29,206 nt of DNA from Promethearchaeota archaeon (lineage in GTDB: Archaea; Asgardarchaeota; Lokiarchaeia; Sigyniarchaeales; SOKP01). The notes under the pieces were generated by a model that saw only the letters and a list, made by a program, of their open reading frames with translations, ran no database searches and was not told the origin of the DNA. The translations under genes were made by a program, and so were the position numbers. Below, piece by piece: positions 4,586 through 29,206 of this stretch. The number at the start of each line of letters is the position of its first letter. The first letter of the stretch is position 1. The DNA lies in contig JABCSY010000051.1 in NCBI GenBank assembly GCA_018238625.1, positions 1-29,206 of the forward strand, written 5' to 3'.

Positions 4586-4773
4586 ATGGCTTAATTTTAT
4601 TGTTATTTTTATTTAAATACGAATTCCTTAAAATTATTTCCTACATCTATTAAAAAATTACATTTACTGATTTTGAGGATCAAAAATAGTATATATAAAC
4701 TTTAATAGCTATGGTAATTTTGATATTTTGATTAAATTTTAAAAGATAAAAAATTCGCGTTTGGTTATCAAAA

Positions 4774-5985
4774 TTGAAAATATCCAAGTTTGGAATACTA
4801 TTTTTACTTTTGGCGCTCCGGATTGACAAACATATTAAAGGATATGTTGATTTTTATTTTGGTCCTGAAAATTTACGAAAAATTGTTGACAACGAGTCAT
4901 TAACATCGCCAAAAAAACTGTTATTAGACTCCAAAACTTTATTAAAACAGTTGGGGGCACAAGGTTACGATAAAAAGCGCGAGCGATATTTAGAAAAAAT
5001 GCTTATAGCAATGAGGACTTCAATAGAATTGCTAATCGGAATCGAGATTCCTATTAAGGAACAATTTTTAAGGCTTTATGATGTAGATTTACAACCAGTT
5101 AACGAAGCGGAGCTGGATAATTTAAAAGAGGAGTTTAATGAAGCATATCGCGGTCCTGGTAGTTTAGAAGAACGAATGAATAAATTAAGAATTTCTCGTA
5201 CTGTTCCTGAAGAAAAGGTTTTTGAGTTGTTTAAAAAAGCACTTGACATCACTGAAAAGCGAACTAAAGAATTGTTTGTTGATCTCTTACCTAAAAAAGA
5301 AAGAATTTTTATAGATGTAGTAAAAAATAACGATACAGATGAGAAAATAAAATGGGCTTGCTATAATTGGTATTTAGGTAATTATTCTAGCCGAATTGAA
5401 GTTAATCCTAATTATCAAATGTATTGGACTGTTTTTCTAACATATCTTTCTCATGAGGGATACCCAGGACATCATACTGAATTTGTTATAAAGGAAAAGA
5501 GGCTTTATCGTGAATTAAACCAATTCGAACATTCTATCTTAATTCTACACTCTCCAAAATTAGTTATTTCCGAGGGAATCGCAAATAAAGCAATCTCTGT
5601 AATCTTTTCAAACCGGGAAGTAGCAGAAATTGGTTTACGAGAATTTTGTTCAGACGCGTCAAAAGAAGCATCTCTTGAAGAATTGGAGTTACAAGACATA
5701 GTAAAAGCAAAAATCCCTCTTTTTTGGTATAATTTTGCATATCATGCTCTAATTGATAAATATAGCAACGAAGAACTAATTCGATATGGACAAAATCTTG
5801 AAATTTTTAGTGAGGAAGATATAAAAACTGGAATAAAAAGATTATCTAATCCAACATATTCAAAAAATGCTTTTATGTATAACCTTGGAAACAATATTAT
5901 AAAGCACAAATACGGAGAAGTCCCCTCAATTAAAGACTTTCGAAATTTGCTCAGTAACCCAATTTTACCATCTGATTTAAAGTAA
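4774..5985 (+). CDS. DUF885-like putative zinc metallopeptidase
   Basis: HEGYPGHHTE motif plus downstream SEGIA, resembling the DUF885 HExxPGHH...EG motif. TTG start. Confidence 0.6.
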   Translation: MKISKFGILFLLLALRIDKHIKGYVDFYFGPENLRKIVDNESLTSPKKLLLDSKTLLKQLGAQGYDKKRERYLEKMLIAMRTSIELLIGIEIPIKEQFLRLYDVDLQPVNEAELDNLKEEFNEAYRGPGSLEERMNKLRISRTVPEEKVFELFKKALDITEKRTKELFVDLLPKKERIFIDVVKNNDTDEKIKWACYNWYLGNYSSRIEVNPNYQMYWTVFLTYLSHEGYPGHHTEFVIKEKRLYRELNQFEHSILILHSPKLVISEGIANKAISVIFSNREVAEIGLREFCSDASKEASLEELELQDIVKAKIPLFWYNFAYHALIDKYSNEELIRYGQNLEIFSEEDIKTGIKRLSNPTYSKNAFMYNLGNNIIKHKYGEVPSIKDFRNLLSNPILPSDLK

Positions 5986-6186: not shown

Positions 6187-6338
6187 TCAATTTTACAAGG
6201 TTTAAAAAGAAATTCATTTTTTAATTTTTATTGAAGTTTAAATAAACATTTTGAAATAAAAGTATAGTTTCATTCAGAATTTAAATTTATAAGAGAAATA
6301 GGTTAAAAACATCTCAATTAATATATAAGGTGGAAAAA

Positions 6339-6368
6339 ATGCCTGGTCAAGCTGGAGCAGTACCATAA
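6339..6368 (+). other. Candidate micro-ORF (MPGQAGAVP, 9 aa)
   Basis: ATGCCTGGTCAAGCTGGAGCAGTACCATAA is 15/30 GC in very AT-rich flanks. It is preceded by AAGGTGG and followed at once by a hairpin. Confidence 0.35.
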
Positions 6369-6370
6369 TT

Positions 6371-6410
6371 TGGTGTTTTTTATAAGAACACCATATATTT
6401 TTCTTTTTTA
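6371..6410. terminator. Hairpin plus T-rich tract between convergent units
   Basis: TGGTGTT (6371-6377) / AACACCA (6387-6393) perfect 7-bp inverted repeat followed by TATATTTTTCTTTTTT. Confidence 0.5.
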
Positions 6411-6413
6411 ATT

Positions 6414-7778
6414 TTAAAGCGCGTCTTTCATTTTATTAATTTCAAACCAAAAATATTTGACTGTAATATAATACCATAGGAGTAGTCCAGGGATTACTAA
6501 AATAAATGAGATTACTATATTAGTTGGTATAGTCAAAAAGCCTAAAATATTGATATCTACGAATTTTATTGGCATAATAAACAATTCAATACATAGGAGA
6601 TAAATAAAACCAACGATCATTAAAATTAGCATGAGAATCACAATTCCTCTTATTCTAGGAAACTTACATAATAAGATTGCAGACAAAAGTCCAAAAATAA
6701 CGATTATAATTGCTATTGTAATTAAATCCAGATTTCCAATTGTCCAAACCATTAATAGCGTTGTTATAATAGAAAAAAATCCACAGATAATTGAAATAAT
6801 ATAAAAGTTTTTAACTAATTTTGGTTCCTTTAAAGGACCCTTCGCTAAGATTAATCTTGGTAAAGTCAGAGCGGCGTCTTTCTCGTTGGATGCTTTTATT
6901 AAATCGTTTTTTAACAATATAATATCGCTCTTATTTTCTAGAATTTCACTACTCTCAAAAAATCCTTTTACTGAATATAAAACGTAAAAGCTATTAAAAA
7001 TATGGATTAAAAGTGCACAAAAGACTGCTGCTTCAAGAGAGCCAAATAAAGCAATACACGCAAACAAAGCACCAATGCTTAGCGTTCCAACATCTCCAGG
7101 AAAGATTTTTGCAGGAAATTTATTATATAAGTAAAATGGAATTAGAACTGCTATAGCGATAACGGTAAATAAAACTCCTTCTGCGGAATTCCATATTATT
7201 GAACAAATAAACAAGGAACATAGGGCAATAATGGATGTACCCGACCCTTCACCGTTATATCCTTCTAACATATTCACTGTGTTCGCAAATACAGCGACAA
7301 TTATAGGCGCAAGTATAGGATAAATAACCGTTAACCTTAATTGCCCTAGGAAAGGGATTGTAGGGGAGTCAATTTTAATAAAACCTAAAAAATTTGCCAG
7401 AAAAATCAAGGTTCCCGTAAAGATCGTTAATATTAGTTTATATCTCGATCTTAATTTAATTCTGTCGTCAATATAACCAATTAACCCTGATAAAACCACA
7501 GTTAAAACAAATATCAAGATTTCGTTAAAGAAACTTGGAAAAAAAATAATTAGAAACATTGATGCAAATGAAATTCCTATGACGATGCTAATTCCACCAG
7601 ATTCCGCAACTTCTGTTTTTAAATTTTTATGTATATCGATTCCGATGTGACCCTTTCTTTTCATTATTTTAATAAGATAGGGGATAATTACCATTGTGAT
7701 TGTAAATCCTACAGCAAAGACAATTATTAAATATATAGCTTCCAAGAGTCCCCAATTTAAATCAGTTATACGAATCAT
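6414..7778 (-). CDS. aglH: UDP-GlcNAc:dolichyl-phosphate GlcNAc-1-phosphate transferase (MraY/GPT/Alg7 family) with C-terminal TM extension
   Basis: GIDIHK...VAESGG, IGYIDD, ANTVNMLEGYNGEG, FPAKIFPGDVGT and LTLPRLIL motifs of the archaeal/eukaryotic GPT branch. Confidence 0.85.
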   Translation of the reverse strand: MIRITDLNWGLLEAIYLIIVFAVGFTITMVIIPYLIKIMKRKGHIGIDIHKNLKTEVAESGGISIVIGISFASMFLIIFFPSFFNEILIFVLTVVLSGLIGYIDDRIKLRSRYKLILTIFTGTLIFLANFLGFIKIDSPTIPFLGQLRLTVIYPILAPIIVAVFANTVNMLEGYNGEGSGTSIIALCSLFICSIIWNSAEGVLFTVIAIAVLIPFYLYNKFPAKIFPGDVGTLSIGALFACIALFGSLEAAVFCALLIHIFNSFYVLYSVKGFFESSEILENKSDIILLKNDLIKASNEKDAALTLPRLILAKGPLKEPKLVKNFYIISIICGFFSIITTLLMVWTIGNLDLITIAIIIVIFGLLSAILLCKFPRIRGIVILMLILMIVGFIYLLCIELFIMPIKFVDINILGFLTIPTNIVISFILVIPGLLLWYYITVKYFWFEINKMKDAL

Positions 7779-8600: not shown

Positions 8601-10460
8601 TTATAGTAAGTAGCTTCTTAGTTGTTGAATGTATTTATCTATTGTTCTATCTAGTTTCCTTCTCCTGTTAAAGAAATCGTCTGATAATTTCTGATACGCG
8701 GCTTTAGAAGGTAACCTTCCTCTTTTATATCGGGTCTCCAGAAGGGTTAAACTATCATTTACGCTAAATCTTTCGGCATCTAAAACATCAAGTTTTTTTA
8801 TAATATTATTAAAAGTTTCGTTTGTCTCCATTAAGATTTTTTTAAATGGCGTGATTTCGCCCTTAATTTGGTCGATTTTTGTTGTATTTTTAGCTAATAA
8901 ATTCTTATACGTTTTCTTAGCTAGCTTTTTACGTTTTGCTTCATTTTCTGCTTTTCTAATTTCTAATATTAACGCATTTTTTTCTTCATATAAAGAACAA
9001 AATTCTCTAATTTCATTTGTGGGTATAAATTCCTTTTTAAACACGGATAATTGTTCTTCTCTTTCTCGAGTTTTAATAATTAGGACAAATACAGATGATA
9101 AAAATGCAATTATTAGCATGAAAATAAGAGGTCTTAGAATTAAATCAAAAATATCTACAGTAAATGTGAAAAGTATTGTTTTACTTTCTAAAGGGCTCAC
9201 ATTTTCAGAATTATAAACTAAAACACTAGTATCCCCAGTCTTAAAAGTTGCTTTTGGTAAAGACGATGCGTAATCTATACTACCACAACCCTCTATAAAA
9301 ACACTCGTAGTTTGCTGATGTATCAAAAAATCATAGCTTGTTGTAAAAATGTTAATTAGAATAGACTGTTGAAGCCAATTGTATGAAACTAATTTTTCAT
9401 AAGGTAAATTGTACTCTATAAAAAATTTAAATTTAGAATTAGGCTCCAATGAAACTCGATTTTGATATAAAGCTATAGCTAACACCTTTCTAGAGGGCCC
9501 CTCGATGGAATCGGTTATTGTTGCTCCCAACAATTCGCCAAGATCATCATAAACATTTATGTTTTTAATGTCTACAGGTAGGTTTATTGTAAATGCTGGA
9601 ATTACTATAATTCCTAAATTTTCAATTTTGATTTCTTCCTTGATTTTAACCACGCCCCAAGGAGATATATAAATTTCTCGGTTTATTTCTTCAACTTCTA
9701 ACTTTGTCGCTAGATTATCTTCGAGGGTGATTGTAGTTTCATTATTTTCATCTAAATTTTCTAAAAATGGAGCTAAGAAATTTATAGTAGAACTTTGCTC
9801 TAAATCATATAACACATTTCTACCACCTATAGGTATGCCCATTCCTTCAATCTCTTTATGAAAATTCAGATTTGTCCCCTCAGGCAAAAGATAATTTGAT
9901 TTTATGTTTCCTTCGCTCTTATAAGGTAATATTGGAAATAATAATCCTGTGAAATTAACTAGTTGAACAATTCCTTCACCAATCATTTCAAATTTATAGG
10001 TTATCAAATTTTGGTATGTTTGCCAAACATTTATAATAATCTCTTGAGAAGGTAAAAGAGGAGAATCAAAATATATTGTTATCATTTCATAACTATGCAA
10101 AACCTCGTTTGACCTTTCCGTTAATAAAGTGTTACGTGTTTGACCGGTAGCGCCAAAATAAATTAAATCATTTGAATCCTTTAGCGGGATTCCAAACAAT
10201 ATTGAATTAATAGGATTGTCATTTTGATTTAATATTGTAATTCGATCATTTATATTTACTAAACCAAATGAACTAATATTAGTATTCCTTACAATCTCCT
10301 TAATTAATATGTTTTCAGTCCCTTCTAAACCCCCTGATAATTGAGGATGATCATTTTCCATTTGATTTTGATAATTAGATGAAGGATCATTTTGAAAGGA
10401 CGAAAACGCAACAATAAACAAAAGAAAACTTATTAGTAATATAATCTTTTTTTTTCTCAT
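8601..10460 (-). CDS. Ribophorin I (OST1/RPN1) homologue, oligosaccharyltransferase accessory subunit
   Basis: Signal peptide; two beta-rich lumenal repeats (RNTNISSFGLVNIND; REIYISPWGVVKIKEEIKIENLG, cf. RPN1 RxIEVSHWGNIAVEE; VYDDLGE cf. YRDEIGN); single TM; charged helical cytosolic tail. Confidence 0.82.
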   Translation of the reverse strand: MRKKKIILLISFLLFIVAFSSFQNDPSSNYQNQMENDHPQLSGGLEGTENILIKEIVRNTNISSFGLVNINDRITILNQNDNPINSILFGIPLKDSNDLIYFGATGQTRNTLLTERSNEVLHSYEMITIYFDSPLLPSQEIIINVWQTYQNLITYKFEMIGEGIVQLVNFTGLLFPILPYKSEGNIKSNYLLPEGTNLNFHKEIEGMGIPIGGRNVLYDLEQSSTINFLAPFLENLDENNETTITLEDNLATKLEVEEINREIYISPWGVVKIKEEIKIENLGIIVIPAFTINLPVDIKNINVYDDLGELLGATITDSIEGPSRKVLAIALYQNRVSLEPNSKFKFFIEYNLPYEKLVSYNWLQQSILINIFTTSYDFLIHQQTTSVFIEGCGSIDYASSLPKATFKTGDTSVLVYNSENVSPLESKTILFTFTVDIFDLILRPLIFMLIIAFLSSVFVLIIKTREREEQLSVFKKEFIPTNEIREFCSLYEEKNALILEIRKAENEAKRKKLAKKTYKNLLAKNTTKIDQIKGEITPFKKILMETNETFNNIIKKLDVLDAERFSVNDSLTLLETRYKRGRLPSKAAYQKLSDDFFNRRRKLDRTIDKYIQQLRSYLL

Positions 10461-15442: not shown

Positions 15443-15814
15443 ATGTCTGAGAATATCAGTGAGCTCACGGATTTATTAAGAAAATTATCGGCTGTAAATA
15501 GCGATATCGAAGGCTCAGCAATAGTAAGTGTTCAAGGGCTTCCAATTTGTTCCGTTTTGAGTAGGAATGTTAACGACGGGATCGTTTCTGCCATGTCTGC
15601 CGCTATACAGAGCGTTTCAGAGCGTGCGGTTGAGGAGCTTGAGAGAGGTGAATTAAAAAGAATACTTATTGAAGGGTTAAATGGCATCATAATTCTCTCT
15701 AAAGCAGGTGAAAATGCTATTTTATGTACTCTTTGTAGCGCTAATGCTAGCCTAGGAATGGTTTTTCTAAACATTCAGAGCGTTTCCAATAGAATTGCGG
15801 CTTTATTAGATTAG
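15443..15814 (+). CDS. Roadblock/LC7 (MglB/LAMTOR2-like) domain protein
   Basis: DIEGSAIVSVQGLPI, VSAMSAAI, ELERGELKRILIEGLNG and ASLGMVF; strong SD AAGGAGG at 15427-15433. Confidence 0.93.
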   Translation: MSENISELTDLLRKLSAVNSDIEGSAIVSVQGLPICSVLSRNVNDGIVSAMSAAIQSVSERAVEELERGELKRILIEGLNGIIILSKAGENAILCTLCSANASLGMVFLNIQSVSNRIAALLD

Positions 15815-22843: not shown

Positions 22844-23443
22844 ATGATATTGTATAGTGTCGGTGTAAGGGGAGGATTAAAAAGAATAAGTAAAGCCGAT
22901 TTTAAAGAAGATTATGTGTATTTAATTGACGATTTCAAAACAATATATATATGGTTTGGTTCGAACATATCTAAAAAGAGAAAGGATATAACAATAAATA
23001 AGGCAAACTTGTTAAATGAAAAAAAGGACAAAATAGCTAACATTCAAATAATAGATCAAAACAAAGAATATGGTGCTTTTATCGCCATTAAAGATGTTTT
23101 AAGCAAAGGAGTAAAGCAAATAAAAGCCATGGGAAGAAGAGCTGAATTAAAAATTCAAATTGAAGAGACTATGGAGCTCATTGAAGCAGGATTAAATCCA
23201 GATCTCGAGGCAGAAATAACGATCGCAGCAAACAACATTACCCAAAAAAAAAAATCATATAAAGAATTATGCGAAACTTTAGCTCAATTACAGTTAGAGT
23301 TTTTAAAAGGCTCAAAGAAAACTTCTAAGGACGAAATAAAGAAAAAGACGCAAGAAATTTTTAAGTCTTCATCGACATACGAGGAACTTTGCTGGTTAAT
23401 TGCTCAACTAAATACTTTAAACAAAAAAAAATCATTAGATTAG
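22844..23443 (+). CDS. Single-domain gelsolin fused to helical X-type domain (1DGelX-like actin regulator)
   Basis: FKEDYVYLIDDFKTIYIWFGSN...IIDQNKEYGAF is the gelsolin signature; C-terminal half has a duplicated YxELCxxxAQ motif. Confidence 0.82.
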   Translation: MILYSVGVRGGLKRISKADFKEDYVYLIDDFKTIYIWFGSNISKKRKDITINKANLLNEKKDKIANIQIIDQNKEYGAFIAIKDVLSKGVKQIKAMGRRAELKIQIEETMELIEAGLNPDLEAEITIAANNITQKKKSYKELCETLAQLQLEFLKGSKKTSKDEIKKKTQEIFKSSSTYEELCWLIAQLNTLNKKKSLD

Positions 23444-26552: not shown

Positions 26553-29206
26553 TTATTTAATAACTATTGCAGGTCGACCTGGTAGCGATTGAGGTGCTTT
26601 TTTTTCTTTTGAGTCGCTCTCTAAAACGATGTTTATCGGGCAGTTGAATTTTTTGTTAATTATTGGTATCATCTCTTCAAAGAATTGATACTCTTCTTCA
26701 CTGGAAAGTGTATATTTTGGATATTTACCAATATTTTTTAATATTTTTGCCGTTGTTTGATTAATGAATTTAGCGTAAGTTTTAAACTCGTCGTGTTGCA
26801 TTATCTGTTTCATGATTTCTCCTTGATTTTTTGACTTTTCTATTAAACTCATTAAAAGCGAATAGAATTTGAATTTCCACGAAGCAGCAATTATTATGTT
26901 AATGTGTTCTAACTTATCTTTTTTGGTTGCTAATTTAATGCTGTTAATATCGTCTATAGTATTGTCCATAAGTTTCCATTTAAATTCGTTTTCGACAGTT
27001 AATAAAGAACCGTTATACGATGGCCAATTGGCTAAACTGATAAATTCTTTTTTTCCCAAAAGCTCCCAAATCTCTTCTGTTGTATGTGGGGCAATAGGGT
27101 GGAAAAGTAATGCCAATTTTTCTCGACACTCGTTGAAAATTTCTTTTAATCCACCTTCGTCCTTATATTTTGTTAAATCCGAAAAAAATAGAATAATATG
27201 ATTTATAACATCACGAATGGCAAGTTTCTCGTAGCTTTCCGTAACTTTTTTTATAGTTTTATTCAAATTGTATGTTATTAATTCGTCCCTAATGGACCTC
27301 TTTATTCGCACTTTTTCGATTGGTTCTCTTAGCAAGTGAAAAAAATTCCTCATAAATTTGTAAGCGAAATCTACTCCTTCGTCAGACCATTCTAACCCTG
27401 ATTTTGGACTAGCCCCAAATAAAATAAAGAATCTCGCTGCATCGGCTCCATATTTATTCATAATTCCAATTGGTTCTACAGTATTCCCAAGACTCTTGCT
27501 CATTTTAACGCTTTTCAAAATATATTCAGTTCCACATCGTTTACATTTTTTATCGTGCATTTCTGCTTTCTTTGCGAATGTTTCGCATTCAAGGCAGAAA
27601 GGATGGGCTTTATTTATCATTCCTTGTGTTAATAACTTTTGAAATGGTTCGTCACACGAATGAAGTCCAAGATCTCGAGCTACTTTAGTGAAAAACCTTG
27701 CATATAATAAATGAAGCACAGAATGTTCAACGCCTCCAATATATTGATCAACATTCATCCAATAGTCTGCTATATCTTTTCTATATGGTAGTTTCTTCTC
27801 ATCAGGATCGCAATACCTGAAGAAATACCACGAACTATCTACAAAAGTATCCATTGTATCTGTTTCTCTTTTAGATGGTTTTCCACATTTTGGGCATTGG
27901 ACTTTGACAAAACTTACACTTGTTTTAAGAGGATTTCCTTTACCTGCGAACTTTACGTCTTTAGGTAGCTCCACAGGTAAGTCTTCGTAAGGTACGGGAA
28001 CGATTCCACAAGTATCACAATAAATAATTGGAATAGGACAGCCCCAATAGCGTTGTCTGGAAATTAACCAATCTCTTAATTTATAATTGATTGTATCTTC
28101 CCCCATTTTCATTGTTTCTAGCTTATTTGTAATTGATTTTATGGCAGAGCGGTTTTCCATACCGTTAAACTCGTCTGAATTAACTAAAGTTCCATCGCCT
28201 TCATATGCTCTAATCATTTTTTTTTCATGTATTTCATAATCAAACGGCTGAATAACTATTTTTATTGGTAGATTATATTTCACAGCAAATTGGAAGTCTC
28301 GGGAATCATGCGCAGGAACAGACATTACAGCTCCAGCACCATACTCGTAAACAACAAAATTCGAGATATAAACAGGGATTTCTTCTTTGGTCAATGGATT
28401 GACACAATATTTTCCAATAAACATTCCCTTTTTCTCGACATCAATGTCAGTCCTCTCAAATGTATTTTGATGCATTACTTCTTGATAGAATTTTTCGTAT
28501 TCTTTTCCATATTCAGTTCCTTTTACCCATTCACGAACCCATGGATGTTCTGGGGCAAAAACCATAAAAGTAACTCCAAATAATGTATCAGGCCTAGTAG
28601 TAAAGATATCAACGGTACGCTCTTCCCCAACTATAGGAAATCGAATCATAGTACCCTCAGATTTCGAAATCCAATTTCGCTGCATTATCTTTACTTTTTC
28701 TGGCCAATCTACGGTATTCAAACCATCTAAAAGTTCTTCAGCATATTCCCGTATTTTTAAGTACCATTGAGTAAGAAACTTTTGATCAACATCAGAGCTA
28801 CATCTCCAGCATTTGCCATTTAGTACTTGTTCATTAGCTAATACTGTTGTACATTGAGCACACCAGTTTACATAGGACTCTTGTCTATAGGCTAGCCCCA
28901 TTTCATACATTTGAAGAAAGAAGAACTGATCCCATTTATAATAGCTAGGATCGTGGCTAAAAATCATTCGCGTCCAATCATAAGACAAACCGATTCTTTT
29001 TTGTTGTTTTTGTATAGCCTGAATATTCGAATTCGTCCATTCTTCCGGATAAGCACCGTGGTCGATTGCCGCGTTTTCTGCGGGGAGTCCAAAGCTCTTA
29101 TGGTATTTCTCTTATTGGGAAACACAGTCATAGCCCATTGGATATAGTACATTATACCCGCTCATTCGTTTATATCGCGCAAATGAATCACCAATTGAAT
29201 AGTTCC
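26553..29206 (-). CDS. leuS: Leucyl-tRNA synthetase (bacterial-type core, archaeal-type C-terminus); 5' end beyond window; join(26553..29096, 29127..>29206)
   Basis: The ORF-track frame continues upstream: [26 protein letters not shown][30-nt insert][14 protein letters not shown]...IGLSYDWTR. Also [44 protein letters not shown] and KMSKS. Confidence 0.96.
29097..29126 (-). other. Predicted BHB-type mRNA intron in leuS (30 nt, in-frame TAA at 29112-29114)
   Basis: GGGC|TATG|ACT|GTGTTTC-CCAATAAGA-GAAATAC|CATA|AGA|GCTT forms helix, 4-bp helix, two 3-nt bulges and a 7-bp inner helix. Canonical cuts join TAT GAC to AGC TTT GGA. Confidence 0.9.

Follow-up and report, generated by a model that had tools for sequence, protein, structure and literature searches.

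The interrupted leuS gene

How can an Asgard archaeon obtain leucyl-tRNA synthetase (LeuRS) from a leuS gene whose reading frame is broken by a stop codon within a conserved motif of the enzyme? The question was raised by contig JABCSY010000051.1 (C152) of assembly GCA_018238625.1 from Promethearchaeota archaeon, the entire 29,206 bp of which were analysed here and are referred to as the window. The contig is part of a 4.29-Mb metagenome-assembled genome (MAG) G000 (201 contigs, 32% G+C, completeness 97.9%, contamination 7.6%). The leuS gene appeared to contain a conserved and canonical bulge-helix-bulge (BHB) mRNA intron, very probably removed by the splicing endonuclease EndA and the ligase RtcB, and we infer that cleavage and ligation of the transcript take place and are needed for active LeuRS. 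The features concerned were as follows.

29127..29206, minus strand: leuS exon 1, 3' end only (sequence, translation, alignment to the allele on contig C30)
29097..29126, minus strand: putative mini-intron I1 of the BHB type, 30 nt long, its in-frame TAA lying at 29114-29112 (sequence, relatives)
26553..29096, minus strand: leuS exon 2, from SFGLPAEN to the stop codon at 26555-26553, with the editing and anticodon-binding domains (Pfam, structure match)
29088..29142, minus strand: the complete hBHBh' motif (sequence, conservation)

On the minus strand, the gene extended between the contig end (29206) and the stop codon at 26555-26553, and its 5' part was cut off by the contig end, with approximately 58 N-terminal codons including the HIGH motif missing. 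On this strand, exon 1 terminated with ...CCAATGGGCTATGAC at 29127, the 30-nt in-frame insert TGTGTTTCCCAATAAGAGAAATACCATAAG occupied 29126-29097, and exon 2 opened with AGCTTTGGACTCCCCGCAGAAAAC at 29096. The single TAA in the insert interrupted the frame, and translation detected no other stop across the remaining 852 codons. The letters on which the original prediction of a TAA-containing 30-nt insert had been based agreed exactly with the minus strand.

Pfam analysis identified the LeuRS editing domain and Anticodon_1 in exon 2. The best solved relative of the insert-free allele on contig C30 (P0001) was the LeuRS of T. thermophilus (1H3N/2V0C, 695 bits), while exon 2 of the window scored 138.6 bits in its C-terminal third against the archaeal model TIGR00395, far below the cut-off of 648.5. 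Judging from the T. thermophilus match, the Pfam domains and the sub-cut-off TIGR00395 score, the LeuRS of the window, which includes a CP1 editing domain, is classed with the bacterial and not with the archaeal/eukaryal type.

Predicted fold and cleavage register

The RNA around the insert was predicted to form a complete BHB motif. The outer helix consisted of GGGC (29136-29133) and GCUU (29095-29092), extended by UCCA (29142-29139) and UGGA (29091-29088), and was followed by the central 4-bp helix of UAUG (29132-29129) and CAUA (29102-29099). Two 3-nt bulges, AC|U (29128-29126) and AG|A (29098-29096), lay on opposite strands, and the inner 7-bp helix of GUGUUUC (29125-29119) and GAAAUAC (29109-29103) was closed by a 9-nt loop containing the TAA (29114-29112). 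Both bulges were located 3' of the central-helix strand to which they belong, as in the pre-tRNA intron at position 37/38. In order, the intron comprised one bulge nucleotide, two 7-nt inner strands on either side of the 9-nt loop, the 3' strand of the central helix (4 nt) and two bulge nucleotides.

Cleavage after the second base of each bulge would remove exactly the 10 codons that neither the C30 allele nor T. thermophilus LeuRS possesses. The C30 allele shared 79% protein identity with the window, and its sole gap corresponded to these 10 codons (PMGYD|SYGLPAEN); in its DNA, the end of exon 1 directly abutted the start of exon 2. The fold proposed beforehand was supported, as were its rule of cleavage and the resulting YD|SFG junction. 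The T. thermophilus enzyme was also uninterrupted at this site, which, by counting, follows the residue aligned to Asp80, presumably the residue in contact with the amino group of leucine.

The probability of such a register arising by chance was estimated over approximately 1.2e9 pairs of position and length (11-150) in the 4.29-Mb genome. A relaxed BHB definition was satisfied by 128,074 of the genome pairs (~1e-4), and a strict hairpin-like definition, which the leuS insert passed, by 1,436 (~1.2e-6). As the protein alignment permitted approximately one position for the insert, the strict rate corresponds to a chance event of about 1e-6. The BHB scanner, written to the 37/38 geometry, was compared with the tRNA introns reported by ARAGORN within limits of 4 nt for position and 6 nt for length; among the 11 intron-bearing tRNAs, one intron was recovered exactly (tRNA-Thr CGT), one was displaced by 2 nt, and nine were not found within these limits. 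Mimicry of a tRNA by the motif was also considered and rejected, as inspection by eye found neither a U33-like position nor a Leu anticodon.

Distribution of the insert among relatives

The survey covered the genus of the window (g1; 42 genomes, 38 of which have this leuS) and its order (154 genomes, 138 with the gene). Within the genus, the insert was present at the same site in 10 of the 39 leuS matches covering the site (G000:C152, G008:C316, G008:C381, G005, G022, G023, G057, G050, G015 and G056) and absent from the other 29, corresponding to 9 of the 38 gene-bearing genomes. Across the order it was found in 12 of the 138 gene-bearing genomes belonging to three genera (g1, g15 and g23), the carriers outside g1 being G149, G070 and G073 from the two other genera. 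None of the 15 gene-bearing genomes of families f2 and f4 had the insert. A scan of metagenomes with a 21-base pattern gave 11 matches, seven of which were leuS with the insert. The comparison of presence and absence that had been suggested for related lineages located the intron at one and the same site in 12 genomes, and its absence from others demonstrated that the intron is polymorphic, occurring in some species and alleles and not in others.

The insert varied in informative ways. That of G149 had two consecutive stops, and that of G056 was 29 nt long, carrying a U>C change in the inner helix together with the loss of the partner A, both flanks remaining open; the bulge rule still restored the frame in this variant. 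The 29-nt variant, the double stop of G149 and the stops in a second insert described below indicated that the insert cannot be read through.

A second insert, likewise of 30 nt and containing one or two stops, was detected behind ...YYK|WDQ... at the following loci.

L057:2878-2949: insert 2 of G008:C316, with two stops
L070:2419-2490: insert 2 of G057:C64
L172:199-270: insert 2 of a metagenome locus

Only one of the three possible placements of its boundaries yielded a BHB, and this one was good: CUAU/AUAG formed the central helix, the first bulge was AA|A and the second AG|A or AA|A, the inner helix had 9-10 bp, and an outer helix of 2 bp was followed by 5 more base pairs beyond a 4-nt bulge. 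Insert 2 always accompanied insert 1 and was found in distant branches of the leuS tree. It was absent from the window, where leuS read uninterrupted at the corresponding site.

Selection on the exons and conservation of the intron

The intron-bearing copies showed pairwise ratios of nonsynonymous to synonymous substitution (dN/dS) of 0.02-0.12 over up to 603 codons, with mostly saturated dS, and neither stops nor frameshifts were found outside the inserts in the 12 carrier genomes over the approximately 600 codons compared. The exons are under strong purifying selection, and the gene is not decaying.

A FastTree phylogeny of the N-terminal 603 residues, rooted on a Thorarchaeota-labelled sequence, excluded G008:C381, G015:C44 and L086, the last of which is identical to G005. 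G015 carries its insert on C44 but entered the tree through contig C45, on which the site is not covered. The insert marked two groups, (G023, G057, G015, G005, G022) and (G008:C316, G000:C152, G050), as well as G056 alone. Every member of the two groups was insert-bearing, indicating that much of their divergence arose with the insert present.

The intron itself was also constrained. Its mean pairwise difference was 0.17 (120 pairs) against a synonymous difference of 0.3-0.8, demonstrating that it is far more conserved than synonymous sites. Among 16 distinct sequences, 93.8% of the pair cells held standard pairs, compared with 31-49% when the partners were slid by 1-3 columns. The central 4-bp helix was invariant and fully paired (100%), and the outer and inner helices were paired in 88% and 96% of cells, respectively. 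One-sided changes preserving the pairing (GU>AU, UA>UG, CG>UG and GC>GU) were observed.

As a separate observation, the leuS of G080, a genome of another genus (L178, G080:C152:600-4200, around 640-720), lacked the approximately 14 codons containing the HIGH motif and was frameshifted there, with no BHB insert; this gene either is truly a pseudogene or was misassembled.

Two versions of the locus and two kinds of LeuRS

Contig C30 contained the first 603 codons of leuS (G000:C30:1-1810, corresponding to 27390-29206 of the window). C30 and C152 overlapped only within leuS, with DNA identity of approximately 65-90% rising to 97-100% in the last 70 nt before the end of C30, and contig C73 of G016 was colinear with the upstream flank of C30, with leuS, and with the region downstream in the window. 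On the strength of this colinearity and of the overlap confined to leuS, C30 and C152 are not paralogs but represent a single locus in two versions, derived from strains that were assembled together. An intact second leuS had been named beforehand as an observation that would speak against the intron; such a copy formally exists in C30, but it is this locus in another strain, and no decay is seen in the intron-bearing copies.

The alleles, with or without introns, have evidently recombined across species of the group, as judged from their sequences. The flanks of the species were 87-95% identical while the leuS allele classes differed by approximately 25% in DNA; G000:C152 and G050 shared a near-identical intron-bearing leuS (dS 0.045); and the database protein P0002 was a mosaic, resembling C30 in its N-terminal part and C152 thereafter. 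Such recombination can explain the patchy distribution of the intron as well as repeated loss can.

Two kinds of LeuRS were seen to coexist in the genus, the bacterial type in 38 of the 42 genomes and the archaeal type in many but not all. Matches to TIGR00395 over the cut-off were present in 17 of the 25 genus genomes searched, G000 being among those searched, and G012 had a short sub-cut-off fragment. No such match was found in G000 (98% complete), G050 (88%) or G008 (85%), nor in G003, G014, G019 and G020. The intron-bearing leuS is therefore probably the sole leuS locus in G000.

Traces in public data

A Logan contig of the DNA run X1 spanned 28892-29206 without gaps and with the insert present (12 mismatches). 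The effect of the inserts on gene calling was evident in public protein entries of 785, 820, 837 and 857 aa, which began just after insert 1 or 2, the 857-aa call starting inside the insert; the expectation that annotation pipelines would mis-call this gene was thus justified. As for RNA, X17 was, among the 22 sequencing runs listed, the sole metatranscriptome containing part of the gene when the region 28300-29206 was compared. A contig from this run matched the middle of leuS (28300-28552) with one mismatch, which hints at in situ transcription of this leuS allele or of one nearly identical to it; DNA carry-over is possible.

Splicing enzymes and the proposed mechanism

The EndA domain PF01974 was detected in two proteins of G000, encoded on contigs C58 (97.7 bits, 200 aa) and C7 (73.8 bits, 201 aa), and RtcB (PF01139) in a single gene on C24 (556.8 bits). 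A Tyr...His...Lys pattern, which we take to be the catalytic triad of EndA, was kept by the C58 protein only and not by that of C7. A pair of which one member has the pattern fits the broad-specificity (alpha-beta)2 EndA of Asgard archaea reported by Kaneta et al. 2018 (PMC5829648).

In the 98%-complete G000, ARAGORN recognized 19 tRNA genes, 11 of them with introns, and most tRNA genes of this genome are probably too interrupted for recognition. The count agrees with a 2026 preprint (10.64898/2026.10.13.758758), the accessible part of which describes Asgard tRNA genes as heavily interrupted; in that part of the text the term 'mRNA' does not occur.

We propose that the pre-mRNA would fold locally, with the bases of the M-G-Y-D and S-F-G codons pairing with one another as the outer helix and with the 3' end of the insert as the central 4-bp helix, and the inverted repeat of the insert forming the inner helix. 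EndA, probably as an alpha-beta heterotetramer of the C58 and C7 paralogs, would then cleave each 3-nt bulge behind its second base. RtcB (C24) would join the exons, restoring the conserved LeuRS motif across YD|SFG, and would probably circularise the 30-mer. A further-reaching proposal, which we regard as possible but rather doubtful, is that EndA and RtcB carry out a routine and obligatory step in making an essential housekeeping protein of this Asgard lineage, the two leuS mini-introns being heritable elements that pass from species to species with recombining allele segments.

Weighing of the alternatives

Several observations weighed against the intron and its splicing. The minimum free energy structure given by RNAfold (-14.3 kcal/mol) kept the outer and inner helices and left the AU-rich central helix open; the BHB fold, at -11.1 kcal/mol, was not the predicted optimum, and the minimum free energy of the region was ordinary (z = -1.19). 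The thermodynamics by itself was unremarkable; the argument for an intron is based on the motif and its register. In the comparison for compensatory changes suggested by the original prediction, no pair changed on both sides within the genus, and two did so once three genomes of other genera were added, both in G073 (GC>AU, and CG>UA, for which G070 has the intermediate UG). The covariation score was 0.098 versus 0.087 and was reached by 13 of 500 shuffles, with both changes in one sequence, making covariation weak support for the helices. The RNA run X17 covered 28300-28552 only (word depth 34.8), with nothing at the insert and no joints reported; X18 gave no coverage, and X19 covered only 28673-28889, again with no joints reported.

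A genome-wide search for split genes of the same kind, also proposed beforehand, gave no clear second example in G000. The screen combined a canonical BHB with restoration of the frame and at least 50 open codons on both sides, a definition that misses relaxed motifs and the leuS case itself at its contig end. It returned 861 matches against 698-770 at random positions, or 189 against 145-167 for inserts of up to 60 nt; among the 64 better candidates, none was split-gene-like by eye and most were gene-gene junctions. A TAA in a MetRS-like frame on contig C156 was considered as a second intron and dismissed as mere read-through upstream of the start.

The most serious alternative is gene decay: a redundant, intron-bearing leuS would be turning into a pseudogene after a small DNA insertion had inactivated it, with leucine charged by another LeuRS, either of the archaeal type or from an insert-free allele. 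The insert-free version on C30 lies in the same bin, a truly broken leuS occurs in the family (G080), and the RNA coverage ends short of the junction without spliced joints. An archaeal-type LeuRS occurs in 17 of the 25 genus genomes searched and in at least six intron-bearing genomes, namely G005 (partial, residues 1-675), G022, G023, G015, G056 and G057 (partial), which implies that the gene need not be essential everywhere. Against this stand the dN/dS of 0.02-0.12 with saturated dS among the intron-bearing copies and the stops confined to the inserts over some 600 codons in 12 genomes; neither relaxed selection nor further disruption was thus observed. A dying gene would also have to account for the same insert at the same site in three genera, for an insert far more conserved than synonymous sites and for an exact BHB register expected by chance at about 1e-6. 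Moreover, C30 is allelic and not a second locus, and an archaeal-type LeuRS was not found in G000, G050 or G008. We therefore consider decay of the gene unlikely.

It could instead be supposed that the insert is retained in the mRNA and overcome in translation, by stop read-through, recoding or ribosomal bypassing, adding 10 residues or being hopped over. The length of insert 1 is a multiple of three in 15 of the 16 distinct sequences, the insert 1 of G057 has no stop and is translatable in principle, a point that also counts against the intron, and a hairpin is formed as in bypass elements. The 29-nt variant of G056 would nevertheless shift the frame, and two consecutive stops in G149 and the two stops of insert 2 in G008 would have to be overcome; read-through and bypassing were rejected on the basis of the 29-nt and double-stop variants. 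By reading the sequence, no matching pair of take-off and landing codons that preserves the conserved Asp was found, and the site lies within the catalytic core, directly after the residue aligned to T. thermophilus Asp80, making a translational explanation very improbable. An assembly or sequencing artefact or a chimeric contig might be suspected, as 80 nt separate the insert from the contig end on its upstream side and the bin, with 7.6% contamination, holds two versions of the locus. The insert recurred in independent assemblies, that is, in 12 species-level genomes, seven metagenome contigs and the Logan contig of DNA run X1, and an artefact is hardly conceivable.

Other features of the window

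The window also contained genes for Ribophorin I (8601-10460), Roadblock/LC7 (15443-15814) and a gelsolin-repeat protein (22844-23443), which we take to be eukaryote-like signatures typical of Asgard archaea. The host had been called an Asgard archaeon from the sequence; this call is well supported by these genes together with the labels of the nearest named records (Promethearchaeota, Lokiarchaeota, Hodarchaeota and Thorarchaeota). An open reading frame of 403 aa (4690-5985) without a Pfam match had 4-6 more copies per genome with 68-80% DNA identity in five related genomes, and the short repeats following it (6267-6418) were likewise recurrent. As both the further copies and the downstream repeats recur in relatives, this frame probably represents a multi-copy mobile or expanding gene family. 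Pfam found no homing-endonuclease domain in the open reading frames of at least 110 aa in the window, including a 283-aa frame just downstream of leuS.

Significance and comparison with known systems

A spliced leuS transcript would carry mRNA splicing by the tRNA machinery into a new class of genes, the aminoacyl-tRNA synthetases, and into the archaeal group closest to eukaryotes. The lineages with and without the intron constitute a natural series for the study of intron gain and loss, and the leuS intron offers a simple test substrate for Asgard EndA. The truncation of leuS by gene callers (785-857 aa) may cause an essential synthetase to seem broken or missing in metabolic and completeness analyses of MAGs. 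Were splicing of leuS obligatory, LeuRS output would depend on splicing capacity, and the system would be a prokaryotic counterpart, in close relatives of eukaryotes, of the spliceosome-independent splicing of HAC1/XBP1.

A BHB intron in cbf5 pre-mRNA was reportedly described by Watanabe in 2002 and by Yoshinari in 2006. Yokobori 2009 (PMC2738675) gives its distribution as Desulfurococcales and Sulfolobales. In the accessible portions of PMC2738675, PMC5829648 and PMC12397907, the only archaeal coding sequence documented to have a BHB intron is cbf5, and neither leuS nor protein genes of Asgard archaea are mentioned; among the matched references of a 2025 paper on archaeal splicing endonucleases, three cbf5 papers were the only ones. 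The full-text literature outside subscription journals and bioRxiv supplements yielded no description of BHB introns either for leuS or for protein genes of Asgard archaea, in agreement within that scope with the earlier statement that cbf5 is the classic case and that none was known in leuS. The leuS intron is an addition to a known but very small class of BHB introns in archaeal protein genes.

Like the cbf5 intron, the leuS intron is short, lies in protein-coding sequence with BHB-like boundaries, and is predicted to be cut by EndA; both are present in some lineages and absent from others, in hosts with hetero-oligomeric EndA. It differs in the gene, leuS, and in the lineage, Asgard instead of Crenarchaeota, as well as in the presence of two separate introns in one gene and a fully canonical hBHBh' motif. 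The leuS intron is moreover polymorphic within a genus and even within one metagenomic population, and its splicing is deduced from sequence.

The likeness to the pre-tRNA intron at position 37/38 is structural, as both consist of a helix, a 4-bp helix flanked by two 3-nt bulges, and another helix, and the rule of cleavage, 3' of the second bulge base, is shared. The size of the leuS intron fits the range of these introns, and EndA and RtcB are both encoded in G000. In contrast to a pre-tRNA, the substrate is an mRNA in which the equivalent of the anticodon stem is formed by the codons of a conserved protein motif, with no tRNA resemblance otherwise.

In eukaryotes, the HAC1 and XBP1 mRNAs are spliced by cleavage with IRE1 and ligation by tRNA ligase or RtcB. 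The proposed processing of leuS resembles this in that a small mRNA intron would be removed without the spliceosome and the exons joined by a tRNA-splicing ligase, altering the frame or product. The nuclease is IRE1 in those systems, acting on motifs that are two stem-loops, whereas it would be EndA here, and the splicing of HAC1/XBP1 is a regulated stress response, whereas the leuS intron is without sign of regulation.

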